A DNA stretch of 64,000 nucleotides from Planctomycetota bacterium (GCA_965223265.1 OZ244999.1:3840001-3904000), one strand, 5' to 3'; counted from the first letter of the stretch, positions 2,279 to 17,386 are shown. Notes: generated by a model from the sequence alone, not told the origin. A program made the numbers and translations.

Positions 2279-5044
2279 CTACTCGGCTTCGGCCAAGCTG
2301 CTCGCCGCTTTCTTCGTGCTCTTCTTGGCGGATTTCTTCTTCGCCTTCGCCGTCTTTTTCGCGGCGGTCTTCTTAGAAGCCTTCTTGGCGGTCGTCTTCT
2401 TCGAAGTCGTCTTCTTTGTCGTCTTCTTTGTCGTCTTCTTCTTCGCGCTCTTCTTCTTTGCAGTCTTCTTAGCTGCCTTCTTGGCGCCGCGTCGTGGCTT
2501 CGCAGGCCCTGCGGACTCACGCGCGCGAATGAGGTCAATCGCGGCGTCGAGTGTCACCTTCTCCGGATCTTCGCCACGCGGAATCGAAGCATTCGTGGTG
2601 CCGTTCGTGACGTAGGGGCCATAGCGCCCGGAGAGAAGACGGAGCGGCTCCTTGGTGAGAGGATCCTCACCCAGCTCTTTAAGCACGCGCGGCGCGCGGC
2701 GTCCACGCGGCTTCTCCTCGGCGAGCTTTTTCAAAGCCTCTTCGAGCGTAATCGAGAAGACCTGGTCCGGCTGCTCAAGAGTTCGTGTGTCGGTGCCGCG
2801 CTTGATATAAGGGCCGAAGCGCCCGTAGTCAGCCATGACGTCGGTTGAAGTTTGCGGACACGTGCCGAGCTTGAGCGGCAACGATAACAACTTCAGAGCC
2901 TGCTCGAGTGTGGTCGTCTCGAGCGTCATACCAGGGAACAGCGATTTCATCTTCGGCTTCTCGTCGCCGTCGTTCTCGCCGAGCTGAACGTACGGGCCGA
3001 ATCGACCAGTCTTGGCGTAAACCTTCTTGCCGCTGTCGGAGTCAACGCCCAGTTCATTCGGCTGGGACCCTTGCGCCAGCAGTTCGAGCGCTCGCTCAAG
3101 TGATAGCTCGTCCGGTGCGGTACCGTCCGGGATGGTCGCGCGTTCGTCGCCGCGCTCGATGTAAGGACCATAGCGCCCGATTCGAATATTGACCACCTGC
3201 CCGTCTTCGTCTTCTCCAAGTGGAAGCGTGCACGAAGCACGCGCATCGATCTCCTGTTGAGTGAGCTTTTTGAGGCCTTCCTTGGATTCGTGGCCAAAGT
3301 AGAAACTGCGGAGGTAAGGCACGGACTCCTTCTCACCGAGGGAGATCGCGTCGAGATGATCCTCCATGCGAGCTGTGAACTCGACATCAACAAGGTCGGC
3401 AAAGTGCCGTTCGAGAAGCTGGACGACGGCGAACCCCGTAAAACTCGGCACCAGGGCGTTGCCCTGTTTGAAGACGTACTCCCGGCGCAACACCGTTTCG
3501 ATGATGCTCGCATAGGTGCTCGGCCTGCCAACGCCGCGCGCTTCGAGTTCCTTGACCAAAGAAGCTTCAGTGTATCTGGCCGGGGGTTGGGTGGTGTGCC
3601 CCTTCGGCTCGATCTCACTCGCGGTGAGTGGTTGCTCCGCGCTCACGTCGGGCAACAAGACTTCCTTATCGGCAAGCACTGCGTTTGGGTCGTCGGCGCC
3701 CTCGACGTATGCCCGCAAGAAACCTGGAAAGTCGATCGTCTTGCCGCTCGCCTGAAAGACGCTCTCGTTTCCAACGACTTGGACTGAGATCCGGTGCCCA
3801 CGGGCGTCGGCCATTTGCGTCGCCATCGTTCGCTTCCAGATCAGCTCATACAGTCGGGCCTCACGGCCACCGACCTGTCGATCGACTTCCTCGGGATGCT
3901 TGAACTCTCCCGACGGCCGAATCGCCTCGTGCGCTTCCTGGGCGTTCTTGACGTTCGTCTTGAACTGACGCGCCTCGCGTGACAGGTAGTCCGCGCCATA
4001 GAGTTCACCGATCAAACCGCGCACGCTCTCGACGGCACTCTCGGCGAGCGTCGTTGAGTCGGTTCGCATGTACGTGATGTACCCGTTTTCGTAGAGGCGC
4101 TGCGCTGCTTGCATCGTGTCACGTGCCGAAAAGCGCAATTTCCGGTTCGCCTCTTGCTGCAGCGTACTGGTCGTGAACGGCGCCGAAGGTCGCTCGGTGT
4201 ACGGTTTCTTCTCGACCTTCAAAACACGCCAATCGGCCGTCTCGAGGTCGCTCGCAAGTTGACTCGCTTCCTCTTCGCTCAGGAGGACCGGGGCTTCGCC
4301 TGACTTCCCCGCTTTGAGCTCGCCAGTTGAACTGTCGAAGTCCTTCCCAGTGGCAAGTCGCCGCCCGCCGACAGAAACCAGACCGGCGGCAAACTCCTCG
4401 CCGCCCTCAGTACGAAATCGCGCGATCAGGTCCCAGTACGAACTCCGAACGAACTTCAAGCGTTCCCGTTCCCGCTCGACGACAAAGCGTAAAGCGACCG
4501 ATTGAACGCGCCCGGCAGAAAGTCCCTTCTTAATCTTTCGCCAGAGAATCGGGGAGACCTCATAGCCATAAAGGCGATCAAGAATGCGCCGAGCCTCTTG
4601 GGCGCGCACGAGTCCATGGTCAAGGTCGCGCGGATTCTCCACGGCGCGGCCGATCGCTTCCCGGGTGATCTCATGAAAAACGAGGCGCCGGTGGGGGACC
4701 TTCGGCTTCAAGACCTGAACGAGGTGCCAACTGATGGACTCTCCCTCCCGATCCTCGTCCGTCGCCAGGAGGAGCTCGTCCACGCCTTTGAGAAGACTCT
4801 TCAGTCGAGCGATCTGTTTCTTCTTCTCGCTGGGAACGACGTAGAGCGGCTCAAAGTCGTTCTCGATGTCGATTCCAAGGGTGGCCCAGGACTCACCCTT
4901 CAACTTCGCGGGAACCTCTTTCGCAGACTGCGGCAAGTCGCGGACGTGTCCGATGCTGGCCTCGACGACGAAACTCTTCGGTAAAAACTCCGAGATGGTT
5001 CTCGCCTTGGCCGGGGATTCGACGATGACTAAGCTCTTGCCCAC
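2279..5044 (-). CDS. topA: DNA topoisomerase I (type IA) with Topo_C repeats and Lys-rich C-terminal tail
   Basis: 'LVIVESPAKA', 'ATDEDREGE', 'SAGRVQS', catalytic 'ITYMRTDS', 'QEAHEAIRP'; four 'GRYGPY/GRFGPY' repeats; KKAAKKTAKK tail. Confidence 0.97.
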   Translation of the reverse strand: MGKSLVIVESPAKARTISEFLPKSFVVEASIGHVRDLPQSAKEVPAKLKGESWATLGIDIENDFEPLYVVPSEKKKQIARLKSLLKGVDELLLATDEDREGESISWHLVQVLKPKVPHRRLVFHEITREAIGRAVENPRDLDHGLVRAQEARRILDRLYGYEVSPILWRKIKKGLSAGRVQSVALRFVVERERERLKFVRSSYWDLIARFRTEGGEEFAAGLVSVGGRRLATGKDFDSSTGELKAGKSGEAPVLLSEEEASQLASDLETADWRVLKVEKKPYTERPSAPFTTSTLQQEANRKLRFSARDTMQAAQRLYENGYITYMRTDSTTLAESAVESVRGLIGELYGADYLSREARQFKTNVKNAQEAHEAIRPSGEFKHPEEVDRQVGGREARLYELIWKRTMATQMADARGHRISVQVVGNESVFQASGKTIDFPGFLRAYVEGADDPNAVLADKEVLLPDVSAEQPLTASEIEPKGHTTQPPARYTEASLVKELEARGVGRPSTYASIIETVLRREYVFKQGNALVPSFTGFAVVQLLERHFADLVDVEFTARMEDHLDAISLGEKESVPYLRSFYFGHESKEGLKKLTQQEIDARASCTLPLGEDEDGQVVNIRIGRYGPYIERGDERATIPDGTAPDELSLERALELLAQGSQPNELGVDSDSGKKVYAKTGRFGPYVQLGENDGDEKPKMKSLFPGMTLETTTLEQALKLLSLPLKLGTCPQTSTDVMADYGRFGPYIKRGTDTRTLEQPDQVFSITLEEALKKLAEEKPRGRRAPRVLKELGEDPLTKEPLRLLSGRYGPYVTNGTTNASIPRGEDPEKVTLDAAIDLIRARESAGPAKPRRGAKKAAKKTAKKKSAKKKTTKKTTKKTTSKKTTAKKASKKTAAKKTAKAKKKSAKKSTKKAASSLAEAE

Positions 5045-5580: not shown

Positions 5581-8500
5581 TCATTCCTGTGCCGTCTCTG
5601 ACGTTGGCGTCGCCTGCCAGTAGAGCGGCAGATAGCGGTAGTACACCTCGAGCGAAAGCGTCGCGAAACAGGTCGCCAGCACCTGCCCTCCCGCTTCCGA
5701 CCACGGTCCCGTCGGGTCCCAACTGCCGCGCCGAGCGCCGGAACGGTTCTGTGATTTGACGAGGTAATCGCGCACTTCCGTGTTCCAGCGCTCCCAAATC
5801 CAGCCTTGGTACTGATAAAGAGCCAAGGTCCCGTAATAGACGAGGTACAAGTTGTCGAGGTAACCACGGCGACGCGTCTCCGTATGTATGTAGCGAGCCG
5901 CCTCCTCGATGTTGTCGTCGCCGCGGCGAGCACCAAGCAGCTGCCGCGCGAACATGCCTTCGGCAACCATCGCAACACGCGGCTCCTCTGGTTTGGAGTA
6001 ACCGTAAATCCCACGGTGCTGCCCGCTCGACACCTCGACATCAAACCAGTGGCGAGCACGGTCGAAGACGCCACCGGGAAGCTTGAGCGCGCTCCCATGG
6101 ATGCTCGTCAAGGCCATCACCTGCCAGCCGCTCACGGACGTGTCGCCGCGCAGCGGGACGACAGGCAAGTACCGCCACCCCCCAGTGTTCGGGTTCTGCG
6201 CCTCAACGATGATCCGGGCGGCCTTCTCGATCGCCGGCAGCAGACGTTCGTCGCGACTCAGGATATAAGCCTCACTGAGCGCCAACGTCGCAATGCCGTG
6301 ATTGTACATGATGTACTTCTGGTCTGACCCGCTGAGCAGACCGGACTCAGTCTGAATGCTCAAAAGCCAACGTAAAGCCCTCAAGACCGTCATACGGTAT
6401 GGACTGTCGGGCTTCACGTGGGTGTGATTCTGCCCCAGGAAAGAGAGCACCGCGAGCCCGGTGACAGCGGCGTCGCACTGGGTGTGAAACCCCGGGGCGC
6501 CGCTATCGGGAAGCCGCTGCAGAAAACCATCAACGTCCCAACGACCGTCCTCGGACTGGCACGCCGCAAGCCACTCGAGCGCCAAACGGACGGCCAGCTC
6601 AGACTCGGCGGTACCGCCCATCCGCGGCACGAGAACCTTACGGCTCTCTTCACTCCTTGCGTCGCTCAAGCTCATTCGCTTCTGCGGACGACGTTCCGGC
6701 AATCGCTTTCGCGCCGGCGCGTCGATTCCAGGAACCGGCTCGAGGGGTCGGAGGAATTCTGCGGTCGCCACCTCGGTCGGCGATGGCGTGGAGGCGTCGG
6801 CGGTGAGTGGAGCAGAGTCACCCGCGACTGGCTCCCGGCGCGCGTCCACGGCCGGCGGCGCCGGCGGAGCCCCTGATTGGCGAGACACCTCGAGTTTCGT
6901 TCTTGCCGCCGGCGACAACTCTGCTCCAATCAGATCGGCTGCGTTGTCGCTCCCTTCACCAGGCTTCTGGCTCCGCTCACCGTCGGGTAAATCGGTTTGT
7001 GGCGCGCGAAGCGGCCCGCTCGACGCGACGGCAGAGTCGACCAACGAGCCTGGCGCAGGCGACGTACTCAAAGTCGCGGGAGAAGCCTCTTGGACCGCGT
7101 TCAAACCGTCAGCCGGGGCAATCGCTGGTCGCGCCTGCGACACGTCACGCTGGCTGAGTAGCTCGGCGCGCGCGACCTCATCGCCTGCCGCGGGTTCCCA
7201 CCGACGCACCGCGTCAAGCTCGGCCGGCTCGACACGCAGGTTCTCATCGACGGCCTCTTGCCGCCGCTCGGCCAGCGCCGCAGTCTCGGGCATCTGGGGC
7301 TGAGTCGCAGCCTCAGATGGCTGCGCCCGTGGCGGCGGCAGCGGACTCCTCTGAAAACGCGCCTCGGGAGACGTCACCGCTTCGGTGCCCACCGCAGGGG
7401 CGTGCCAACGTCGCTGCGGTTGCACAGCCGCGATCAGCGGCGGCGCCGACGTTTCGAGCTGCGGTGGAGTCGGCCGCGCCGAGGCTTCACTCCTCGTCGC
7501 TTCAGCACGCGGCGCCAAACTCAGTTCCGCCTCTCGATCAGCCGACTGCGCCGGCACCGGAATGCTGCTCACGAGCTCCTCGGTTGGCGTCGTCGCCGCG
7601 TGGGTCAGCGGCGGTAGAACTTTCGGAGGTAGCGCCGGCGCCTGCACCTGTGTCCGCGCCTGCTGGACCTGCTCAGCCCGCACTTCGGTAGCGAGCGACG
7701 GAACGGTCTCGACGACAGTTCCTACCGGTCCTGGACGGGGAGTCTCCGCTGCAACTTTCAGACTCAGTCCGACGCCCACCGGCGTCGTGGCGTCGACCTC
7801 ATCGCTTGCGGGAGAAGATTCGGGCGCCGGCAGCGTGTCTGCTTCTGCGGCGACTGTGGCGAGCGCATCAGGACGCAACTGTTCGACGATCGGATCTTGG
7901 CGCCGCTCGAACGGTACCGGTGGAAGTGATGTATCGACGCGCGCGGTCGTCGCGTTCGAGAACGGTTGAACTTTCTCGAATTGAGGTACGGCGACCCTCT
8001 CCACGGCGACGTCCAGTGCAGATGGATCGGCGAGCATTGGGCTGTCGCGGAGTGTCGGTTGGGGCTCAACCGTCGCATCGAGAGGGTCCTGATCCGGCAG
8101 CTCGATTTTGATGCGTTGAGTCTCCTGTGTCAGCCGAGCCTGAAGAGTTTTCTCGATGGTCACTTCGGCGAGCACAGTCTTTGCGCGCACCTGCGCCAAT
8201 TGAGAACCGATCTGCCAGAAATAGAAGACGTAGAGGAGCCCGACATGGAGCAGCACTGCGACGACGGCACAGCGAGCGTAGAGGTTCATCGCCCAAAGCC
8301 GACGATACCGCATCAGAACCAACGTCAGGATAAACAAGACCACGGCGCCGAGGGCTAAGCCGCCGACTTGCAACAGATACTGCGTCACCGCGTCGATCGG
8401 GACGGCAGCGACGGAAAGCTCCGGCGCGACCTCGTGTGAGCGACTCTCGAAATGAAAGGACGCACCCGTCTTCGGGTCACGAACCTCATACGCCAAACCG

Positions 8501-9573
8501 AAGCCTTCGAGTAAGAGTTGCGGGGCCGAATCATCGAGCCGTGTGTTCACTGGCGGCCCGATATTCTCTGGAGAATCAACCTGGAGGGTGGTCACTTCGT
8601 TAGGATCAAGGCCGAGGAGGCGGCAGCGGCTTCGGTAGAGATCACGACTCCCAAAGCCGCCATCGCGACTCGAAGAAAAGTAGAGGAACGTGCCACTCGG
8701 ACTGAACGCGGGGCGTTCCTCATCCCTCTCGGTCACGAGGGAGGCGAGCGGCTGCGGCTCAGACCAACCGCGAAGCGATCCATCGGGTGGAGCGATGGCA
8801 TAGGCCAGCTCGAAGTCAGCTGCTTGCCAATTCTCAAGCGGCACGTCGTCCCATGAAGTGGGCGGGGCAAACAGAAACCCACGTGGCCGATTCGTCGCGA
8901 AGACAATCAGTCGCCTCGAGGGGTGTAACGTCGCGCCCACGTCATCAAACGGAGAATTGATCTGCGATCCAAGCGCGCGGGGGGGCGACCAAGCGCCGTC
9001 CGCGAAGCGGCTGGCATAGAGGTCGAAACCGCCAAAGCCTCCGGGGCGATTGCTCGCGAACAATAGAAGCGTGCCGTCGTGACTCAGCGTCGGCGCGATC
9101 TCATCGTGCGGCGAATGGAACGCGGCCTCCTCACCTCCGAGAAGAGTCGGGCCAGTCCATCCCTGCGGTGTCAAGTGACGTACAAAGATGTCACGCGTCC
9201 CGGCAGCGGTCTTCAGCGCGACGAGGAGGCGCGGGGCGCTCGACGGAATGGTTCCAACGACGGTTTCGTCCTGCCGTGCGCCTGGGCGATCGTGAATCTC
9301 TTCGGGCGGGGACCAGAGCACACTGCGCACGTTCAAGCGGTCCCGAGAATCCCAAATTGCATCGCCGTCTCGGTAGATCCACCTCACGTATCCAAACTTG
9401 AGGCCAACCCAGATGAGGACACCGAGCAGCAGACAGAGAAAGGCGACACTCCAGCCAGCAATCGTCCAGTACTGAAACCGACCCCACCTGCCTGCTGCGG
9501 CGACGGTGTGCTCCTCGTCACGTTTCTTTCTAGACCGCCCACGGTCTGGTCGGTGTCGTGCGCGCCGCCTCAT
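5581..9573 (-). CDS. Multidomain membrane protein: TM + PD40/TolB-like propeller + 2 TM + Pro/Ala-rich linker + prenyltransferase/squalene-cyclase-repeat alpha/alpha barrel
   Basis: PD40 repeats ('PTLSHDGTLLLFASNRPGGFGGFDLY', 'PAFSPSGTFLYFSSSRDGGFGSRDLY'); TM 'AVVAVLLHVGLLYVFYFW'; QW motifs 'QSEDGRW', 'QNPNTGGWRY'. ATG at 9573 overlaps the exbD stop (ATGA). Confidence 0.85.
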   Translation of the reverse strand: MRRRARHRPDRGRSRKKRDEEHTVAAAGRWGRFQYWTIAGWSVAFLCLLLGVLIWVGLKFGYVRWIYRDGDAIWDSRDRLNVRSVLWSPPEEIHDRPGARQDETVVGTIPSSAPRLLVALKTAAGTRDIFVRHLTPQGWTGPTLLGGEEAAFHSPHDEIAPTLSHDGTLLLFASNRPGGFGGFDLYASRFADGAWSPPRALGSQINSPFDDVGATLHPSRRLIVFATNRPRGFLFAPPTSWDDVPLENWQAADFELAYAIAPPDGSLRGWSEPQPLASLVTERDEERPAFSPSGTFLYFSSSRDGGFGSRDLYRSRCRLLGLDPNEVTTLQVDSPENIGPPVNTRLDDSAPQLLLEGFGLAYEVRDPKTGASFHFESRSHEVAPELSVAAVPIDAVTQYLLQVGGLALGAVVLFILTLVLMRYRRLWAMNLYARCAVVAVLLHVGLLYVFYFWQIGSQLAQVRAKTVLAEVTIEKTLQARLTQETQRIKIELPDQDPLDATVEPQPTLRDSPMLADPSALDVAVERVAVPQFEKVQPFSNATTARVDTSLPPVPFERRQDPIVEQLRPDALATVAAEADTLPAPESSPASDEVDATTPVGVGLSLKVAAETPRPGPVGTVVETVPSLATEVRAEQVQQARTQVQAPALPPKVLPPLTHAATTPTEELVSSIPVPAQSADREAELSLAPRAEATRSEASARPTPPQLETSAPPLIAAVQPQRRWHAPAVGTEAVTSPEARFQRSPLPPPRAQPSEAATQPQMPETAALAERRQEAVDENLRVEPAELDAVRRWEPAAGDEVARAELLSQRDVSQARPAIAPADGLNAVQEASPATLSTSPAPGSLVDSAVASSGPLRAPQTDLPDGERSQKPGEGSDNAADLIGAELSPAARTKLEVSRQSGAPPAPPAVDARREPVAGDSAPLTADASTPSPTEVATAEFLRPLEPVPGIDAPARKRLPERRPQKRMSLSDARSEESRKVLVPRMGGTAESELAVRLALEWLAACQSEDGRWDVDGFLQRLPDSGAPGFHTQCDAAVTGLAVLSFLGQNHTHVKPDSPYRMTVLRALRWLLSIQTESGLLSGSDQKYIMYNHGIATLALSEAYILSRDERLLPAIEKAARIIVEAQNPNTGGWRYLPVVPLRGDTSVSGWQVMALTSIHGSALKLPGGVFDRARHWFDVEVSSGQHRGIYGYSKPEEPRVAMVAEGMFARQLLGARRGDDNIEEAARYIHTETRRRGYLDNLYLVYYGTLALYQYQGWIWERWNTEVRDYLVKSQNRSGARRGSWDPTGPWSEAGGQVLATCFATLSLEVYYRYLPLYWQATPTSETAQE

Positions 9574-9986
9574 TCCGCCCCTTGAACGTAGGCAATGTTG
9601 GGATACTTGAACCCTACGCGCACGCAAATCTCGATCGTCTCGACGAGCGGACCGACGAGCCCTCTGACGTCCGGCCGCACGACGACATCACCGTCTGGTT
9701 TGGCGGCATGCCTCTCGCGTACGATCTGCTCAAGCTCATCGAGTGCACGCACACGACCGTCGACAATCTTTTGTCCGTCCTTGTCGATGTTGATCACCAG
9801 CAGCTCCGATACGGTACCGATGGGCATGTCGGAGCGGCTCTTCGCGAGTCGCACAGACTCATCGCGTTCCGCCTCGTGGAAACGACTCGTGGCGATAAAG
9901 AACACGACAAGGATGAACATCATGTCAATGAACGGCGTCATGTTTGGCATGACGCCGTTGGAACTTCTATCCCGTCGGACTCTCAT
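9570..9986 (-). CDS. exbD: Biopolymer transport protein, ExbD/TolR family
   Basis: 'PNMTPFIDMMFILVVFFI' with the conserved TM Asp; 'VVVRPD' periplasmic motif; translationally coupled to the ExbB gene. Confidence 0.9.
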   Translation of the reverse strand: MRVRRDRSSNGVMPNMTPFIDMMFILVVFFIATSRFHEAERDESVRLAKSRSDMPIGTVSELLVINIDKDGQKIVDGRVRALDELEQIVRERHAAKPDGDVVVRPDVRGLVGPLVETIEICVRVGFKYPNIAYVQGAE

Positions 9987-10783
9987 GCTCTGATCTGTTT
10001 CTCGTCGCGTTTCTTGCGGCGGTGAGCGGACTGACCTTCCGGCTCGGGCACCGCATCGTCGCCGTAGTAAAACTCGAGAAACCGTGACGAAGCCTCCTCG
10101 ACGCTATCGATGACGCGATCGCCGCGCCCCTTGAAATAGTAGTTCAGAACCATCGCAGGAATTGCCACGCTCAAGCCGGCCGCGGTCGTCACCAGGGCGC
10201 GGTAGATTCCGTCGGAGAGTTTCTGCGCTCTTTCGGTCGACTCTGCAGCACTCGCCTCGCCAAAGCAGAGGATCATCCCGAGAACCGTGCCCAGCAGTCC
10301 AAGCAGCGGCGCCAAGTTGGCGACGATCGAAAACGGCCTTAGACGCCGATCGAGGAGATGCATCTCTTTGGTCACGATCTCCTCGAGTGCGGCTTCCGCA
10401 TGCTCTTCGTTTCGATGAAGCCTTCCGACCCCGGCCTGCAGCACGCGACCGATGAGTGTATCGCCGACGTCGACCTCCTCACTAGTGGTCGCAGCGGCAG
10501 CGCGCGACGGCAAAGCCTGTTCGACATCGTCGACCAGATCCGGCGTACCAATACGGGAACGGCGCAGACTGATAAGGCGCTCAATTGCTGCCGTGGCAAT
10601 CACGAACGAGCAAAGAAAGATGGGATACATGAGCGGCCCGCCCTTCATCATCAGCGTGAATACCGTCTCCTGTGAGGCTGACTGAGGTGCTTCTGCCGCC
10701 GCGGCGTCCTGAGCGCACGCAAGTGACGTTGCAGCGAGCGCCCCGAGCGCGGTGACAACGTTTCTAAGACCCGTTCGGTCCAT
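9983..10783 (-). CDS. exbB: MotA/TolQ/ExbB proton channel family protein
   Basis: 'GGPLMYPI', 'APLLGLLGTVLGMI', 'ALVTTAAGLSVAIP'; N-terminal signal-like extension. Confidence 0.92.
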   Translation of the reverse strand: MDRTGLRNVVTALGALAATSLACAQDAAAAEAPQSASQETVFTLMMKGGPLMYPIFLCSFVIATAAIERLISLRRSRIGTPDLVDDVEQALPSRAAAATTSEEVDVGDTLIGRVLQAGVGRLHRNEEHAEAALEEIVTKEMHLLDRRLRPFSIVANLAPLLGLLGTVLGMILCFGEASAAESTERAQKLSDGIYRALVTTAAGLSVAIPAMVLNYYFKGRGDRVIDSVEEASSRFLEFYYGDDAVPEPEGQSAHRRKKRDEKQIRA

Positions 10784-10785
10784 AC

Positions 10786-13700
10786 TCAGTCGATCTCCAA
10801 TCTGCGCAAGCGTTCTCGGGCCAGTTTCGCCTCGTCACTCTTCGGGTACGACTTCACGACGTTGCGATAGTACTTTCCGGCATTTTCCGGATCTTTCAGC
10901 TCTTCGAAGCAGCCCGCCACTTGGAGCACGGCCTTCGACGTCCACTCTTCGTAAGCGAAGCTCGCCTCGACTTTGAGAAACTCAAGAATCGCTTTGCGGA
11001 ACTGTTTGCGGGCGACAAGGCACTGACCAACCTGAAACTGCGCCCGCGCCGCCGTTGGTGTCGAGTTTCCAGCGGCGGCCAGCGAGTATGCATCGATCGC
11101 CTTGTCCAAAGCCCCAAGGTTCTCGTGGGCCCAGCCCTCTCCGAAGTGAGCCCGGTACGTTGCGTCATGATCGGGATAACGCTCACGAAAAGCCGTGAAC
11201 ACCTTCAATGCCACATCGAAATGGCGATCTTCCAATTCGCTTTCACCGTGACCGAGCATGGCAAGTGGAGCCTCCCGGCTCTCCGGGAACGATTCGCTGA
11301 TGCGTTGAAACAGTTTTCCGGCCGACGTCACCTTGTCCTGATCAAGAAGGGTTTTGGCGGCGAGATAGGCCAGTTCCGGGAAGTGGTCGCTCTTGGCGTA
11401 GCGGGCGTGAAATCGCTTGAATGTAGCCAGGAGCTCCTCGTGTTCCTGAAGCTTGTAGTGAGCCCAGCAAAGCCGATACAAAGCACCTTCTTGGTGTTGA
11501 CTGCTTTCAAACCGCGGCGTCTCCATCAACTTCAACAGAAGCGCTCTCGCGTTCTCATAGTTCTTCTGTTCGAACTGCATCTCTGCAAGCTCGAGCTGAA
11601 CGACGAAACTGAACTCCGCGTGCCGTTTGTCGTCGGCAGACGCTTCCAAGATCGCCAACTGGTCTGCGAGTTCCTGATACGTCTCGACGGCCCTCTCAGG
11701 TCGGTCCATGCCGCGGTAGCACCATGCAATCTCGTACAAAATGCGACTCATTTCGCTCGGCGAATTCGGCGCTTCCTTTAGTTTCCAAAGCATCGCCAGA
11801 GCCTCTTCGTGCTGCCCTGTCTTGGAAAGCTGGCTCGCTTCCTCAAGCAGCACTAGGCTGAGGCGGGAGTCGTCGGGGTTCCGTTCGCGAAACTGAGCCA
11901 GCACCTCCTGTGCTTCGTCACCCCTGCCACTGGCTCGAAGACTCAACGCCAGTCGGTACTGAGCATCGGCGGCAACAGCGCTGTCCGGATAGCGATCAAC
12001 GATGCGACGAAAGTATTTTACGGCACGTTCATGCTCTTCCTGCTCGGAGCGATAGACGCCCACAAAAAAGAGCGCTCGCGGTAAGAACTTTGACTTGGGG
12101 TGGTTCTTGATCAGCCGGCGGAATCCTTTCTCGGCGAGGCTCTTCTTCCCCTCCTCGTGAGCGGTCTGACCAATTTCCAAGAGCACCTGATCACTGTATG
12201 GGTGGTCCGGATCAGTCTTCAGAATCTCCAGGTAAACGCTGCGCGCCGCCGACCAATTTTGCGCCAACTGGTGACTGTGTGCGATCTTGAAATGCGCGTC
12301 CCGTTTCTGCGCCAGAAGCTCACTTCGAACAGACTCTGGCGCGTTTTCGACGGCCTCGAGGAACGCGGACAACCGCTCGATAGCGACGTCATATTGTCCC
12401 AATTGGTAAGCCGCGTCGCCGCGATAATACGCGACCGAGAGCAGCTGAGGATCTGCACTGTTCACCGGCACTTCGACGCTGGTGAGATAGTCGGTCGCCT
12501 CCTGATACTTTTCCTGGAGGTGCAGGGCCTGCCCGACTCTCACTCGTGCGCGCGCGATCGCCGCGGCGTCGACGCTCGCAGTGGCGCTCGACACGAATCC
12601 CTCATAGGCCTGGATCGCGCCAGCCAAGTCACCGGCGGCGAATCGATTCTCTCCCGCCAACTGCTGAACGTCCGGCAAGTATGCGCTCTCTCCGTAGCGT
12701 GCAAGAAACTGAGAGCAGGCCTCGCCCGCCGCGGTGTAGTCTCCAGCGCGGTGCAGACAGAACGCCAGCAGATAGAGCGCATGATCGGCTTTCGACGTCG
12801 AGCCGAAATCCTGCAGAAAAGATCGAAAGGAACTCGCTGCGCCAGAGTAATCTTCAGCTGCAACAGCATTCAGACCGAATTGAAGCTCGAGATCGGCGCG
12901 CAGCGCGCTGCGGGGAAACTTCTGAACAGCAGCTTCAACAACCGCCGTCGCGGCCTCGATCTTGCCGTTCGACTTGAGCAGTCGTGAGAGGACGAGCGAG
13001 GCGTGATCACCGACACTCTCCGAGTCAACGAGCTCGCCCAAAAGATCCTCTGCCGCATCGCCTTTGCCGAGCTCGATGCGGGCTCGCGCGAGCAGAAGAA
13101 GCGCCTGATGTTGGTGCTCGCCGTTGCCCTTCGACCCTATGGTCTTCGCCAGAACCTGCTCGGCCTGTTCGAACTTCCCGGCCCGAAAAAGAGCGCTGCC
13201 AAGCCCGAAGCTTCCCAGCTCACGGAAGACACTATTTTCGGAGTCGGCCAGGCTCTCGAAGAGCTTGCTGGCACCAGCCTCATCACCCTGCTCGGCAAGC
13301 ATGAGGGCGACCATGTACCGGGCGTCTTCTGCATGGTGGCCGCTGGACTGTGCGACGTGGCGAAAGATCTTCAACGCGTCGGCAGCACCCTCTTCACCCT
13401 TCTGTGCAAGGTGGTAGAGACTCATGCCGAGATAAAACGTGGCGCGATCGTATTCGTCGCCCTGCGGCTTTGACGTCAAGAACTCCTTGTAGCGGTCGAC
13501 CGCGTCGTGGAACTCCTTCAGGTGATAGCGGCACTCCGCTAGGCCGAGCGTAGCGATCGCCACGTGTTTTTGTTTGGCACCGCTTCTCACGACCCATTCG
13601 AAGGCCTTCTCCGCGCCGCGGTAGTCTTGCAACCTGAGCAGAGCTTGCCCCAGAACCCGTGTCGCCTCGGCCTTCACTTTGAAGCGCTTCGATGAAAGAG

Positions 13701-14205
13701 CGCGACGCAGCGAGGCGACGGACGCCTCGAGATGCTTTCGCGGTGAGAACTCTTCGCCGTCTTGCGTCACAGACGGAGGCTTCGTGGCGACGTGGTAGTG
13801 ACTCAGCCCCAACGCATAGTGGACCAATCCCAAGTCACGGAATTCTGGGTGCTGAACGACGAACTCTTCATACTCAGGAATCGCGACGTGATAGAGTTGA
13901 CGATTGAAAGCGTAGTTAATCTTGAGGAATTTTTCTCTCACTGGATCTGCCTTACGCCGCTTCGAGCGCGACTCAGACTGCGCAAAAGAAGACGCAGTCA
14001 TGCAGACGCAGAACGCAGCCAGTGTGACGAGGGACAGCGACGAAAGCCCAGCTCGGAAGCAACGCACGCTGATACCGAACGAGCGCACATCCCGATCGCT
14101 GCAAATCGATGGCGACGAAATCACGCCCCGCGCAAAACGTAGCGCGCCGCTTTGGCTCGCTATTTCGCGGTCGTTGGGTCTGACGGCCATTCTGTGCTCC
14201 AACAT
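10786..14205 (-). CDS. Large exported tetratricopeptide-repeat protein (CpoB/YbgF/BamD-like repeats); true start probably downstream of 14205
   Basis: Many TPR units with '..YP.S..A..A.Y.LA' signature; C-terminal 'YRNVVKSYPKSDEAKLARERL' resembles the YbgF end; signal-like 'LVTLAAFCVCMTASSFAQ'. Ends 2 bp before exbB. Confidence 0.88.
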   Translation of the reverse strand: MLEHRMAVRPNDREIASQSGALRFARGVISSPSICSDRDVRSFGISVRCFRAGLSSLSLVTLAAFCVCMTASSFAQSESRSKRRKADPVREKFLKINYAFNRQLYHVAIPEYEEFVVQHPEFRDLGLVHYALGLSHYHVATKPPSVTQDGEEFSPRKHLEASVASLRRALSSKRFKVKAEATRVLGQALLRLQDYRGAEKAFEWVVRSGAKQKHVAIATLGLAECRYHLKEFHDAVDRYKEFLTSKPQGDEYDRATFYLGMSLYHLAQKGEEGAADALKIFRHVAQSSGHHAEDARYMVALMLAEQGDEAGASKLFESLADSENSVFRELGSFGLGSALFRAGKFEQAEQVLAKTIGSKGNGEHQHQALLLLARARIELGKGDAAEDLLGELVDSESVGDHASLVLSRLLKSNGKIEAATAVVEAAVQKFPRSALRADLELQFGLNAVAAEDYSGAASSFRSFLQDFGSTSKADHALYLLAFCLHRAGDYTAAGEACSQFLARYGESAYLPDVQQLAGENRFAAGDLAGAIQAYEGFVSSATASVDAAAIARARVRVGQALHLQEKYQEATDYLTSVEVPVNSADPQLLSVAYYRGDAAYQLGQYDVAIERLSAFLEAVENAPESVRSELLAQKRDAHFKIAHSHQLAQNWSAARSVYLEILKTDPDHPYSDQVLLEIGQTAHEEGKKSLAEKGFRRLIKNHPKSKFLPRALFFVGVYRSEQEEHERAVKYFRRIVDRYPDSAVAADAQYRLALSLRASGRGDEAQEVLAQFRERNPDDSRLSLVLLEEASQLSKTGQHEEALAMLWKLKEAPNSPSEMSRILYEIAWCYRGMDRPERAVETYQELADQLAILEASADDKRHAEFSFVVQLELAEMQFEQKNYENARALLLKLMETPRFESSQHQEGALYRLCWAHYKLQEHEELLATFKRFHARYAKSDHFPELAYLAAKTLLDQDKVTSAGKLFQRISESFPESREAPLAMLGHGESELEDRHFDVALKVFTAFRERYPDHDATYRAHFGEGWAHENLGALDKAIDAYSLAAAGNSTPTAARAQFQVGQCLVARKQFRKAILEFLKVEASFAYEEWTSKAVLQVAGCFEELKDPENAGKYYRNVVKSYPKSDEAKLARERLRRLEID

Positions 14206-14569: not shown

Positions 14570-17386
14570 TCAACGGCAAAGACGAAACTCGCACATCGTG
14601 AACGGGTCATCTGCGGTCGGATCCGCACCACACGTCGCCGGAGGAGCCAGCGGCGTGTTGCCGCGAAATAGGTGATTGAGAACATTCACCATATCGGCGA
14701 GATCGAACACGGCGTCATCGTTGGTGTCGCATGCGTCACGACACGTGGGTTGATCGCCGCCCGCGAAGAGCGAGGTCAAACCGAAGATACCGTCTGATAT
14801 GTCGATGACGCCGTCGACATTGCAATCGCCACGTCGAAACGGATCGCTCCCGGTAGCGATCGCCGTGGCGCCGACGATCGCCCTCACGGTCGCTGGAGTT
14901 CCTCGCGAATTCCTCAGCGAGAATTCCACGCTCGTCTCCGATCGGCCGGGCAGCCCCATGCGAAAGTGCCGACCTGGCGCGAGCACCACGTCGCGATCGA
15001 AAATGGCGACGCTCGCTCCGTCTAGGCGAGCCCTAATCTCCAGCGGCAAAGCGCCGACGGTGTCGAGATTGACCAGCGTCAGATAGTAGTCGATGCTTCC
15101 GGCACCAAACGTTCGTCCAGCGACCACTCTTGGCACGGCCGTCGTGGCGTTGCCAGCCAGGGAAAGCTCTGTCTCCAGAAGCTGCTCCGTCAGCAAATTC
15201 GGGTGAGCGACGACGCTCTCTTGCACGATGAGTCCGTCTCCAAGAATCGACAAGCTCGCGCCCGTCGGGTGAGAGATCACGGGCAGCTCCGAAATCGGAT
15301 GGAATGTGGCGCCGATGCCGACGTCAGCGAAAAATGCCGTCGCAAGACCGAGAACCGACGCGCTGTCAGGGGACGGGCCAAGACCGACAAACTCGCTTCC
15401 TCGAAGAAGACTTTGAGAAAACCCCACGAACTTCGCCGCCGTCGCCGAGTCGCGACCAAACGGGGTCGACAGATAAGCATCCGTGAACACCGGCTTGAAC
15501 GTGTCCGACCCGCCCACCAAGAGGCTGCCACCAGGCAGCACGCACACCGCCCGTCCTGTCACCTGGAGAGCTTCGAACCCCGACAGAGCGCGATGCGGAA
15601 CCGGCACACGCGCCACGGCGGTCAGATCCTGTCCGCTAAGATCGAACCTCACCAAGACGTGCCGGTCCGCACCACCGACCCGCTCGCGCCCGTACGCAAC
15701 GAAGTACGTCTCGCCGTTTCCTTCGTGAACGTCCCAACTGTCGAAGACAACGCCAGAAGCGACGGCACCAGTGTCGACTGCATCGACGCGCATCAGCGCC
15801 GTTCCCTTCTGCTCACCGTCGACGGCAAAGAACGCAGCGCTCGGCTGTCCGCCATTGTCGAAACCATTTGAATCTAGAACCGCGAGTGCCCCGGCATCGT
15901 CCAAAGTCATGAAGGCGATGCCCACGCCGCCTCCCGCGATCGACGGCTCTCTCAACGTCAGTACATCCGTCGATTCCAAGGCGTGGTCAAAGACGCTGAC
16001 GAAGGCACTGGGAATCGCCGGAATGTATTGATAGAGCCGAAAGTCATCTACGCTGGCTGGCGTCTTGGTCGCAGCCAAGTCCCGATAGTCACCGTTAGGG
16101 AGCGGAATGCCGTCGAATTCGATCTCGGGCAACCCGACCGTCTGCGTGTTGCTGAATTCGCACGCTGGCGTCACGGCACCCCGGAGACCACCCCGCGACG
16201 TCGCTACGCTGACGAAGAGCTTTCCGACCAGGGGGCCCTCGGAGACATAGCTGGTGGCATTCGGCGGCAGAGTCGCGATCTCCACTCCGTTTTCGATCAC
16301 CACGACTTCATCGATCCCAGCCTGGGTGGGAGGCGACCAACTGAGCTCGTAGCGTCTGAGCTCGTCGTCAAAGTCGCACGTCAGTGCCACCGGCTCTAGG
16401 ACAGACTCAAACTCCAGATCATACGAGATCGCCGCTTCTGCCGGGAGATTCACTGAGAAGAGGGTCGGCTGCTCATTGACTGCACCGACCGCCAAATGAG
16501 CGAAAGTGAGTTCGTTGACTCCGGTCGCGACTGCACCTGAAAGATCGATCATGCGACCGGAATAGCCAGCGTCAGAGGCGCGATACTCCGCGACACGCGG
16601 TGTCCGCCATGCGTCGACGATCCCTGCAGTCGCCAAAAACGTGTCGTCGCTGTTGAAGGCAAGGCCGACTCCTGAGCCGCGAGGCTGGTTGCCAAGCAAC
16701 CACGGACCAATCGTGAAGTGAGGCACGCCAAGCAGCGGAAAGGGGCCATCCGTGACCGAGAAAAAGAAGTCGAGAAAATATACAGCATGCGTGTCTGAGT
16801 CGTAGACGACGATCTGCTCAGCGCTGGGATGAAACGCCATCGACGTCAATCGAGCGCCTTGGGTCCCTTCGACGAGAACGAATTCCGCGATCATGCTTCC
16901 GTCGTTATCAAAGACTCCGACGTGCGGATCAGGGCTCTGCTGCAGGAACGCGTTATCGATCAAAAGCGCGTTGTTGCCGCTGGCGCCGCCGATTGGAATC
17001 TCGGCGAGACCAAGCGCAACGCCGTTGGCAAACTCTTCCGGCAAACTGAATTCGACACGTCGCGGCGTCGCAAGATCGGCAGCGGGAAATGCCAAAACGA
17101 ACGGCGCCGCCGCGCTGTGAGCGTCAAGGACCCAAAACTCTTCGAGCTGAGTCTTGTACGTAGCGTCCACCGCGCTGAGATCCCACGCGAACTGTGTACC
17201 GGCCGCCGAGTTGGTCGCACTGCGACTTCGCACCTCGGCCGGCGCTGCCGCAGCCGGATTCGCGACAGCGAGCGAGCACGAGATCACCAGTAGAGCAACC
17301 ATCCCGGATCGACGCCGCGGCGTGGACACCCACGCCGGCGACGAATCGTGGCCGCACGAAACTGCGCTGCTTGCCCGACACCCCAT
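14570..17386 (-). CDS. Secreted beta-rich protein with C-terminal dockerin-like double EF-hand domain
   Basis: Signal-like 'MVALLVISCSLAVANPAAA' (start likely ~17302); Fn3-like 'ELSWSPP...VVIENGVEIATLP'; C-term 'FRRGDCNVDGVIDISD...ACDTNDDAVFDLAD'. Confidence 0.78.
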   Translation of the reverse strand: MGCRASSAVSCGHDSSPAWVSTPRRRSGMVALLVISCSLAVANPAAAAPAEVRSRSATNSAAGTQFAWDLSAVDATYKTQLEEFWVLDAHSAAAPFVLAFPAADLATPRRVEFSLPEEFANGVALGLAEIPIGGASGNNALLIDNAFLQQSPDPHVGVFDNDGSMIAEFVLVEGTQGARLTSMAFHPSAEQIVVYDSDTHAVYFLDFFFSVTDGPFPLLGVPHFTIGPWLLGNQPRGSGVGLAFNSDDTFLATAGIVDAWRTPRVAEYRASDAGYSGRMIDLSGAVATGVNELTFAHLAVGAVNEQPTLFSVNLPAEAAISYDLEFESVLEPVALTCDFDDELRRYELSWSPPTQAGIDEVVVIENGVEIATLPPNATSYVSEGPLVGKLFVSVATSRGGLRGAVTPACEFSNTQTVGLPEIEFDGIPLPNGDYRDLAATKTPASVDDFRLYQYIPAIPSAFVSVFDHALESTDVLTLREPSIAGGGVGIAFMTLDDAGALAVLDSNGFDNGGQPSAAFFAVDGEQKGTALMRVDAVDTGAVASGVVFDSWDVHEGNGETYFVAYGRERVGGADRHVLVRFDLSGQDLTAVARVPVPHRALSGFEALQVTGRAVCVLPGGSLLVGGSDTFKPVFTDAYLSTPFGRDSATAAKFVGFSQSLLRGSEFVGLGPSPDSASVLGLATAFFADVGIGATFHPISELPVISHPTGASLSILGDGLIVQESVVAHPNLLTEQLLETELSLAGNATTAVPRVVAGRTFGAGSIDYYLTLVNLDTVGALPLEIRARLDGASVAIFDRDVVLAPGRHFRMGLPGRSETSVEFSLRNSRGTPATVRAIVGATAIATGSDPFRRGDCNVDGVIDISDGIFGLTSLFAGGDQPTCRDACDTNDDAVFDLADMVNVLNHLFRGNTPLAPPATCGADPTADDPFTMCEFRLCR

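Follow-up and report, generated by a model that had tools for sequence, protein, structure and literature searches.

The window analysed here is a stretch of 64,000 nucleotides from a Planctomycetota bacterium (GCA_965223265.1 OZ244999.1:3840001-3904000), and its positions 5581 to 14205 carry a four-gene operon that ends in a gene for a 1330-amino-acid (aa) protein laid out like the force transducers TonB and TolA. We consider it likely that this operon encodes a proton-driven motor of the ExbB5-ExbD2 type together with its own non-canonical, motor-coupled force transducer. The genes follow one another on the minus strand in the order tetratricopeptide repeat (TPR) gene, exbB, exbD and 1330-aa gene, each as an open reading frame (ORF):

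10786..14205, minus strand, gene of the TPR protein (1139 aa, ORF)
9983..10783, minus strand, ExbB/TolQ-type gene (266 aa, ORF, Pfam MotA_ExbB)
9570..9986, minus strand, ExbD/TolR-type gene (138 aa, ORF, Pfam ExbD)
5581..9573, minus strand, gene of the transducer-like protein, whole coding sequence with stop (1330 aa from the ATG at 9573)

Read from the sequence, the stop codon of the TPR gene and the ATG of exbB are separated by a 2-bp gap, and stop and start codons overlap as ATGA at both the exbB/exbD junction and the junction between exbD and the 1330-aa gene. The ORFs and the junction letters bear out the tight coupling of four genes claimed in the original prediction, which was made from the sequence alone. 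Promoter and terminator scans at both ends of the operon gave no signal exceeding that of shuffled sequence. The 266-aa protein, which has an N-terminal signal-like extension, matched Pfam MotA_ExbB (1.2e-27), and the 138-aa protein matched Pfam ExbD (2.4e-19), both above cut-off. The membrane aspartate of ExbD, Asp21 (codon 9926..9924, minus strand, letters checked), was present in all 19 ExbD sequences aligned, in agreement with the predicted ExbB/TolQ and ExbD/TolR pair with an intact transmembrane aspartate. In NCBIfam, the 266-aa protein scored 64.9 bits for tolQ versus 44.5 bits for exbB, both far under the cut-offs.

A hydropathy scan of the 1330-aa protein revealed three hydrophobic helices, at residues 36-58, 400-422 and 431-453. 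Combined with Pfam matches, AlphaFold2 (AF2) models and an alignment of homologs (A1, defined below), it gave the following features, with TM1 to TM3 denoting the transmembrane helices:

9400..9468, minus strand, TM1, signal-anchor helix after an Arg/Lys-rich, predicted cytoplasmic tail (residues 36-58; hydropathy, helix 16-59 in the model)
8422..9324, minus strand, five-bladed PD40 beta-propeller (residues 84-384; Pfam PD40, AF2 model, structure matches)
8308..8376, minus strand, TM2, first hairpin helix, followed by a predicted cytoplasmic RYRR..W loop (residues 400-422; hydropathy, model)
8215..8283, minus strand, TM3, the His helix (residues 431-453; Ala439-x3-His443-x6-Phe450)
8247..8245, minus strand, codon of His443 (letters checked)
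8149..8169, minus strand, strand-like motif phi-[R/E]-[V/I]-x-[L/V/I], motor-box candidate, 16 residues past TM3 (A1 columns)
6694..8130, minus strand, low-complexity Ala/Pro/Glu linker (residues 482-960; composition)
5626..6621, minus strand, C-terminal (alpha/alpha)6 toroid with QW-type repeats, ending in a conserved LEVYYRYLP motif (residues 985-1316; AF2, VIA-align)

Hydropathy, Pfam and the AF2 models thus recovered the layout that had been read off the sequence, namely a transmembrane segment, PD40 repeats, a transmembrane pair, a long linker and a QW-motif barrel in a protein of about 1330 aa. The helix quoted in the original prediction is TM3. Because both the N-terminal tail and the RYRR loop are rich in basic residues, the positive-inside rule would place the N-terminus in the cytoplasm and the propeller, linker and toroid in the periplasm. 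This topology, derived from hydropathy and the positive-inside rule, argues against a cytoplasmic linker and barrel and agrees with the original prediction.

We searched protein databases with the 1330-aa query and obtained 95 proteins at E <= 0.001, twelve of which covered at least 94% of the query. All were either unnamed or labelled hypothetical, PD40-domain or carboxypeptidase-regulatory-domain proteins; their sources were Planctomycetota and Phycisphaerae, plus a single Kiritimatiellaeota record. Among the longer homologs, many (1400-1630 aa) carried CarboxypepD_reg (PF13620, PF13715) in addition to PD40 and the toroid, a propeller pairing as in PorE-type proteins. Five homologs of 749-840 aa (one from Kiritimatiellaeota) matched about a quarter of the query and had one helix at each end, not the three-helix layout. 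Alignment A1 comprised the query and 48 of 77 matched proteins picked for spread (49 sequences); 29 were omitted, the five of 749-840 aa among them. The results showed that His443 was kept in 48 of the 49 sequences, the single exception being Asn. Four residues before it stood Ser in 37, Ala in 11 and Gly in 1; position -8 was Cys in 42 of 49, position -9 was Arg or Lys in 42 of 49, and position +7 was Phe in 25 and Leu in 15 (40 of 49). The family consensus for TM3 is therefore [R/K]-C-x3-[S/A]-x3-H-x6-[F/L].

The helix of TonB and TolA that contacts the motor carries the SHLS motif, Ser-3X-His-6X-Leu-3X-Ser, whose Ser and His make up the hub that contacts TM1 of ExbB/TolQ (PMC12905483, PMC12204202). 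The [S/A]-x3-His-x6-[L/F] spacing in TM3 matches the Ser-3X-His-6X-Leu core of this motif, to which the 1330-aa protein contributes Ala439, His443 and Phe450. In TonB and TolA, respectively, a D-box or R-box, a strand that binds the ExbD/TolR dimer, follows 10-15 residues after the helix (PMC12905483). The strand-like motif past TM3 is a candidate counterpart that may contact ExbD. In its A1 columns, position 471 was hydrophobic in 48 of 49 sequences, position 473 was hydrophobic in 46 of 49, and position 470 was Arg, Glu, Gln or Lys in 45 of 49. In the model this region was disordered, with a predicted local distance difference test (pLDDT) value below 50. A predicted complex of two ExbD copies (residues 40-138) with residues 452-520 scored 0.29 against a mark of 0.32, in a prediction run without controls.

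To place the gene in its wider context, we sampled homologous loci, taking the 27 non-self full-length loci among 30 returned, which represent 27 genomes and 14 GTDB families. With the window proteins as tblastn queries, exbB was found directly upstream of the homolog in 27/27 loci. Likewise, exbD was directly upstream in 27/27, in 25 by tblastn and in the remaining two (L016 and L023) by Pfam, which identified ORFs of 141 aa and 136 aa as ExbD at 2.3e-25 and 6.6e-30. Upstream of exbB, the C-terminal end of the TPR protein was detectable in at least 14 of the 27 loci, a floor given flanks of 1.5 kb. The [S/A]-x3-H helix was present in all 27 loci, in 26 by pattern and in L036 by sequence reading. 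The conserved His and the synteny with exbB and exbD, both foreseen in the original prediction, are thus found across 14 families.

Residues 482-960 form a linker of 479 aa with 16.7% Ala, 14.6% Pro, 9.0% Glu and 1.5% Phe, Trp and Tyr, and its columns aligned poorly in A1. This composition is typical of domain II of TonB and TolA, and the linker is presumed to be the periplasm-spanning domain. The GC content rises to 0.68 in 7001..8000, compared with about 0.60 around it, and this rise coincides with the coding region of the Ala/Pro-rich linker. Beyond the linker, the last 371 aa, modelled by AF2 on an alignment of 35 sequences (A2), adopted an (alpha/alpha)6 toroid with a mean pLDDT of 88.8 and a predicted template modelling score of 0.91. 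In VIA-align, its best match was squalene-hopene cyclase 1gsz (Z 27.2, root-mean-square deviation 2.9, 287 aa, 21% identity), followed by the small cyclase 8paj (Z 26.1) and, both at Z 25.0, an oxidosqualene cyclase and drimenyl diphosphate synthase. Close behind these came sugar epimerases and GH76 mannanases (Z 22-25), and the thioester domains of CD109, C5 and C3 reached Z of about 19. Foldseek against the PDB gave weak matches (best E 1e-5, TM-scores 0.58-0.60), and the VIA-align ranking was clearer. Searched against PDB sequences, the A2 profile matched squalene-hopene cyclase (2sqc) at 3.3e-17, mostly through the QW-type repeats, and Pfam SQHop_cyclase_C matched the 1330-aa protein at 0.002 (17.7 bits, under the 26.1 cut-off). 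At E <= 0.01, Pfam found no TonB_C, TonB_2 or TolA family in the 1330-aa protein, and no vWA family was found there by Pfam either. The predicted terpene-cyclase-like barrel in place of TonB_C or TolA_C was accordingly recovered by both the structural match to 1gsz and the Pfam scan.

The catalytic motif of class II terpene cyclases is DxDD, and the thioester motif of alpha-2-macroglobulin and complement thioester domains is of the CGEQ type. D-x-D-D was absent from the toroid of the window protein and present in 5 of the 35 A2 sequences, the window protein not among these; a CGEQ-type motif occurred in 0 of 35. An active squalene cyclase was rejected for want of DxDD, and a thioester protease trap for want of CGEQ. 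Since the toroid lacks both motifs, binding is a likelier role for it than catalysis, and it is most simply predicted to be a binding module, a catalytically silent member of the terpene-cyclase/prenyltransferase-repeat superfamily. This evidence also bears on a motor-driven lipid or glycan shuttle, in which the toroid cavity, a legacy of squalene-binding cyclases, would hold either a glycan chain or an isoprenoid lipid of the hopanoid or squalene type, and the motor would drive the extraction or delivery of this cargo between the membranes. Such a shuttle would suit the very long flexible tether, the many conserved aromatic residues of the toroid and the fact that squalene-hopene and oxidosqualene cyclases are both its closest structures and the only relatives significant by sequence. 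However, much of that sequence similarity lies in structural QW repeats and no lipid-synthesis gene was seen in the operon, and we regard the shuttle as very unlikely.

The toroid proved to be far more widespread than the 1330-aa protein. The A1 profile was run against 401 Planctomycetota genomes with a tighter initial filter than is customary, which makes its counts a floor, and it matched at least 358 genomes at E <= 1e-20, many of them through the toroid alone. The genome of the window carries six further toroid copies. In two of these (L002, 536 aa; L003, 592 aa), a single hydrophobic helix with S-x3-H at the N-terminus is joined by a Pro-rich linker to the toroid, a sequence layout that corresponds to plain TonB with another head; neither had a motor gene within its 1.5-kb flanks. 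The other four (L004-L007) combine a signal peptide with the toroid and are exported proteins without a His helix. Relatives of the L002 type numbered at least 2457 at E <= 0.001, and among the 120 listed, 118 carried [S/A]-x3-H in the N-terminal hydrophobic helix, with Ser in 110 of the 118. Public records name them 'terpene cyclase/mutase family protein' or 'prenyltransferase/squalene oxidase repeat-containing protein'.

We also inspected ten chosen toroid matches from the A1 profile search in genomes without the PD40 form (L041-L050). In nine of the ten, a hairpin-linker-toroid protein of 716-770 aa started right behind exbD (in L041, ExbD by Pfam at 3.2e-27), with a first helix, a short loop in which an Arg-Trp is conserved, and then a second helix that carries S-x3-H. 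The order in L049 was TPR-exbB-exbD-X, as in the window operon, and the tenth locus, L046, had neither the exbD adjacency nor the S-x3-H hairpin. The first helix of the hairpin forms also has a conserved His in 8 of 9 (not L049), in the pattern [A/S]-x-x-H-L-[L/V/I]-[T/S]-M, giving two His helices. In L041, no exbB lay beside the exbD-X pair, and the upstream gene was a glgC-like nucleotidyl transferase. The loop Trp is common to the hairpin forms and the PD40 forms, where it is W427 and is kept in at least 90% of A3 (27 sequences of the N-terminal module), so that the PD40 form looks like a hairpin form in which a propeller took the place of the short periplasmic N-terminal tail. Export of the inserted propeller would have needed a new N-terminal signal-anchor helix. 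An A3 search of 151 genomes at least 90% complete found the module at E <= 1e-30 in 36, and among the matches listed a near-complete module (profile <=32 to >=375 of 405) in 27 of the 151, the window genome included. Judged by these profile matches, the toroid family appears nearly phylum-wide and the PD40 form a minority variant in about a fifth of the sampled genomes. The original picture of a one-off chimera is weakened to this extent: the toroid is a phylum-wide head of His-helix proteins, and what is particular to the present form is the PD40 module, an addition in about 27 of 151 genomes.

These results point to a motor-coupled transducer because the genes are coupled, the His helix is conserved, exbB and exbD accompany the gene in 27/27 loci, and the head travels with His helices and ExbD. 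Several features of the helix weigh against this reading. The first SHLS position is Ala, not Ser, in the window protein; the last SHLS Ser (His+11, position 454) is not conserved, the position varying and most often holding R, Y, E, Q or V; and the His helix comes last of the three and is paired in a hairpin, compared with the single N-terminal helix of TonB and TolA, so that access of a hairpin-paired helix to the ExbB rim has to be assumed. The same features would fit a protein without motor coupling, an inner-membrane-anchored periplasmic binding protein or enzyme for a glycan, a wall component or an isoprenoid lipid that is merely co-operonic, with the His serving hairpin packing or some other role; the four exported paralogs without a His helix add that the toroid exists outside transducers. 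However, conserved adjacency combined with overlapping stop and start codons is hard to explain without a physical link, and the adjacency extends over 27/27 loci in 14 families for exbB-exbD and over 9/10 of the simpler forms for ExbD. In addition, the S/A-x3-H-x6-L/F spacing is that of TonB and TolA, and no cyclase or thioester catalytic motif marks the head as an enzyme. We therefore consider an uncoupled protein improbable.

The N-terminal part of the proposed transducer was examined in an AF2 model of residues 1-480 built on A3. Pfam PD40 matched the 1330-aa protein at 4.2e-17 (62.1 bits versus a cut-off of 20.9), and in NCBIfam the PD40 region matched the propeller part of CHU_0125 (2.5e-23) and of PorE (3.6e-16), far below the full-length cut-offs. 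The model had a mean pLDDT of 79.1, with propeller blocks of about 90-96, and showed a long helix at 16-59, five strand groups at 84-384, a hairpin at 395-422 and 431-452, and a disordered tail. Against 48,161 chains in VIA-align, the best structural matches were to five-bladed propellers of GH43, GH130, GH32 and GH62 (Z 19-20), compared with Z 16.7 for TolB 1c5k (217 aa, 15% identity) and 16.0 for 2ojh. As modelled, the domain is thus made of PD40 repeats by sequence and is a five-bladed propeller by shape. The propeller of TolB has six blades. TolB_N was not among the Pfam matches of the 1330-aa protein, and TolB_N (PF04052) had no match at E <= 0.01 in the genome, which is 91.65% complete. 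With five blades and no TolB_N, a TolB orthologue was rejected. The tethering of the propeller to the inner membrane at both ends, through TM1 and TM2, also counts against a TolB reading. The TolB-like half of the predicted chimera therefore did not hold, and the label 'TolB/TolA chimera' should be dropped; a better description is a TonB/TolA-like transducer that has a toroid as its head and an inserted PD40 propeller tethered to the inner membrane.

At the other end of the operon, the TPR protein begins with a signal-like hydrophobic stretch, as an exported TPR protein would. It matched 22 Pfam families at E <= 0.01, many of them TPR families, including TPR_6 (9e-56) and TPR_16 (1.4e-52). NCBIfam tol_pal_ybgF (TIGR02795) matched at 6.7e-85, with 281.6 bits, summed over 10 stretches, against a cut-off of 90.1. 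As this match falls into ten separate stretches, the protein is a chain of about ten YbgF-type modules, which bears out the giant CpoB/YbgF-like TPR protein that had been predicted. PF16331, the N-terminal coiled coil listed for CpoB in the methods of PMC12204202, was not among the 22 Pfam families. A plain CpoB or CpoB orthologue was rejected on the length of 1139 aa, the ten or so modules and the missing PF16331 match. The YbgF-type TPR domain is common to CpoB/YbgF and the present protein, whereas CpoB is about 260 aa in size compared with 1139 aa here.

We surveyed the whole genome (9.18 Mb) for other parts of such systems. It contains two MotA_ExbB genes only, two Plug-domain receptors only and four OmpA_C domains. 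One TonB_C gene was found (L040, a 316-codon frame), with an S-x3-H helix of its own; its position is about 2.4 kb downstream of a Plug-domain receptor, one of the two, and distant from either motor. The other motor cluster (L039) consists of a TPR-secretin of 1054 aa, a 958-aa ORF, a YbgF-like TPR protein of 385 aa, exbB, exbD, a second exbD and a TPR/STN-secretin of 924 aa. The 958-aa ORF matched no family, and an S-x3-H helix was not found in the cluster's two unknown ORFs. A motor flanked by two secretins is unusual. It thus appears that one canonical TonB and three His-helix proteins with toroid heads are served by these two motors. Both motors scored slightly higher on tolQ and tolR in NCBIfam, far below the cut-offs.

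With YbgF-type and PD40 partners, no TolA, no TolB_N, two motors only and a Tol-Pal system 'largely reduced' in Planctomycetes (PMC8871954), a Tol-like role suggests itself for the operon. The full proposal, a motor-coupled transducer with a Tol-Pal-like job that ties the outer membrane and wall to the inner membrane and coordinates them with it, is one that we advance tentatively and with a little less than even confidence. Four points weigh against it. The case for a Tol-like role is composed of absent canonical parts and of the resemblance of the TPR and PD40 components, and nothing further; by sequence score, NCBIfam does not separate TolQR from ExbBD for either motor; the toroid fold is common to glycan-active enzymes at nearly equal scores (Z 22-25); and a PD40 form present in about 27 of 151 genomes is too rare to be an envelope system common to the whole phylum.

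The same motor-coupled transducer could instead do a Ton-like job, its toroid engaging an outer-membrane channel or surface structure and powering the uptake or export of large substrates such as polysaccharide. A His helix with a long Pro-rich linker and a globular head fits TonB equally well, and the sharing of two motors by several toroid-headed His-helix proteins recalls organisms with several TonBs. The toroid fold lies near enzymes that bind or process glycans (GH76, epimerases), Pec_lyase matches weakly in some relatives, and with two classical Plug receptors only, other import routes would be needed. However, the operon holds no conserved outer-membrane partner gene, its flanks being the TPR gene upstream and an unrelated, topA-like gene downstream, and the partners present, the YbgF-type TPR protein and PD40, are of the Tol type rather than the Ton type. 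We judge a Ton-like job to be unlikely, though it deserves serious weight.

Under the proposed Tol-like mechanism, the 1330-aa protein would sit in the inner membrane with the [S/A]-x3-His-x6-[L/F] face of its third helix docked on the rim of the ExbB pentamer, and the strand-like motif just outside the membrane would contact the periplasmic dimer of ExbD. The 479-aa Ala/Pro/Glu linker would span the periplasm. The toroid, catalytically dead, would act as a binding head that grips a partner in the outer envelope, and rotation of the motor would pull on this partner. TM1 and TM2 would hold the five-bladed PD40 propeller between them at the face of the inner membrane, and the secreted ten-module YbgF-type TPR protein may serve as an accessory scaffold. 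A bolder view is a long shot: that Planctomycetota and their Planctomycetes-Verrucomicrobia-Chlamydiae (PVC) relatives largely replaced TolA and TonB heads by a toroid derived from terpene cyclases, with motors that pull or shuttle an isoprenoid lipid or envelope glycan in its cavity. In that case the PD40 form would act as a self-contained 'TolA plus periplasmic hub', organising how outer membrane and wall are remodelled in bacteria whose division does without the usual Tol-Pal and often without FtsZ.

Two neighbouring ORFs flank the operon:

14570..17386, minus strand, 938-aa ORF, 365 bp upstream of the TPR gene, with an N-terminal signal-like stretch
2279..5044, minus strand, 921-aa ORF downstream of the operon, resembling DNA topoisomerase I by sequence inspection

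The 938-aa ORF had no match in Pfam or NCBIfam at E <= 0.01, and its C-terminal end is rich in Cys and Asp and, by eye, dockerin- or EF-hand-like. The topoisomerase I-like ORF ends in a long basic tail rich in Lys, Ala and Thr.

Planctomycetota have peptidoglycan and an outer membrane, together with an unusual cell plan and an unusual division. For the energy route to their outer envelope, the operon and the wider toroid family supply concrete candidates: a motor, a transducer with a conserved docking-type His and a distinct head. In this phylum, thousands of public proteins named 'terpene cyclase/mutase' or 'prenyltransferase repeat' probably serve as force transducers of the envelope rather than as lipid enzymes. 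The family also widens the idea put forward in 2025 that the heads driven by 5:2 motors go well beyond TonB_C and TolA_C.

Among known systems, the closest that has been published are motor-driven force transducers with a vWA head, from PVC bacteria and others (Williams-Jones et al. 2025, Mol Biol Evol, PMC12204202). They combine an SHLS helix with a disordered linker that bears a motor box and with a head unlike that of TonB. In PVC bacteria, their genes lie downstream of one gene that encodes TPRs, another that is tolQ-like and two that are tolR-like, and their function is unassigned (PMC12204202). Non-TonB heads on SHLS anchors beside TPR-tolQ-tolR were thus already published for vWA heads in that study. 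Shared with the present protein are the SHLS-type His helix, a disordered or Pro-rich linker (with the strand-like motif as a candidate motor box), a head unlike TonB_C or TolA_C and the TPR-tolQ-tolR context. In contrast, the head here is a toroid instead of vWA, a single exbD stands in place of the heterologous pair, the linker measures about 480 aa compared with about 100, and the His helix is the second of a hairpin preceded by a TM anchor and a five-bladed PD40 propeller. The main text of PMC12204202 makes no mention of a toroid, cyclase, prenyl or PD40, although its supplements may hold relevant tables. Literature searches and term look-ups in PMC12905483, with supplements outside their scope, turned up no account of a transducer with a toroid head or a PD40 domain, and the PD40-bearing toroid transducer is apparently unpublished.

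With TonB and TolA, the present protein shares the [S/A]-x3-His-x6-[L/F] helix face, the place directly after exbB-exbD or tolQ-tolR, a Pro/Ala-rich domain and a C-terminal globular head, and with tol-pal operons it shares a YbgF/CpoB-type TPR partner. It differs in having no TonB_C or TolA_C, in three membrane helices compared with one, and in not keeping the last SHLS Ser. Its head, moreover, is all-helical and about 330 aa long, which makes binding by beta-strand addition unlikely. The propeller of PorE has five blades. PorE/CHU_0125-type lipoproteins (TPR, five-bladed propeller, carboxypeptidase-regulatory domain and OmpA_C) have been read as a CpoB-TolB-Pal fusion (PMC12204202). They share with the present system the sequence match in the propeller region, CarboxypepD_reg (PF13620) in several homologs and TPR modules, which here belong to a separate gene; here, however, there is no OmpA_C and no lipoprotein signal, and the propeller is tied to the inner and not the outer membrane. 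Finally, the (alpha/alpha)6 toroid with QW-type repeats is shared with squalene-hopene and other class II terpene cyclases, whereas the present protein has a single toroid instead of two, lacks DxDD and is exported on a tether, and the public names 'terpene cyclase' and 'prenyltransferase' are probably misleading as to function.

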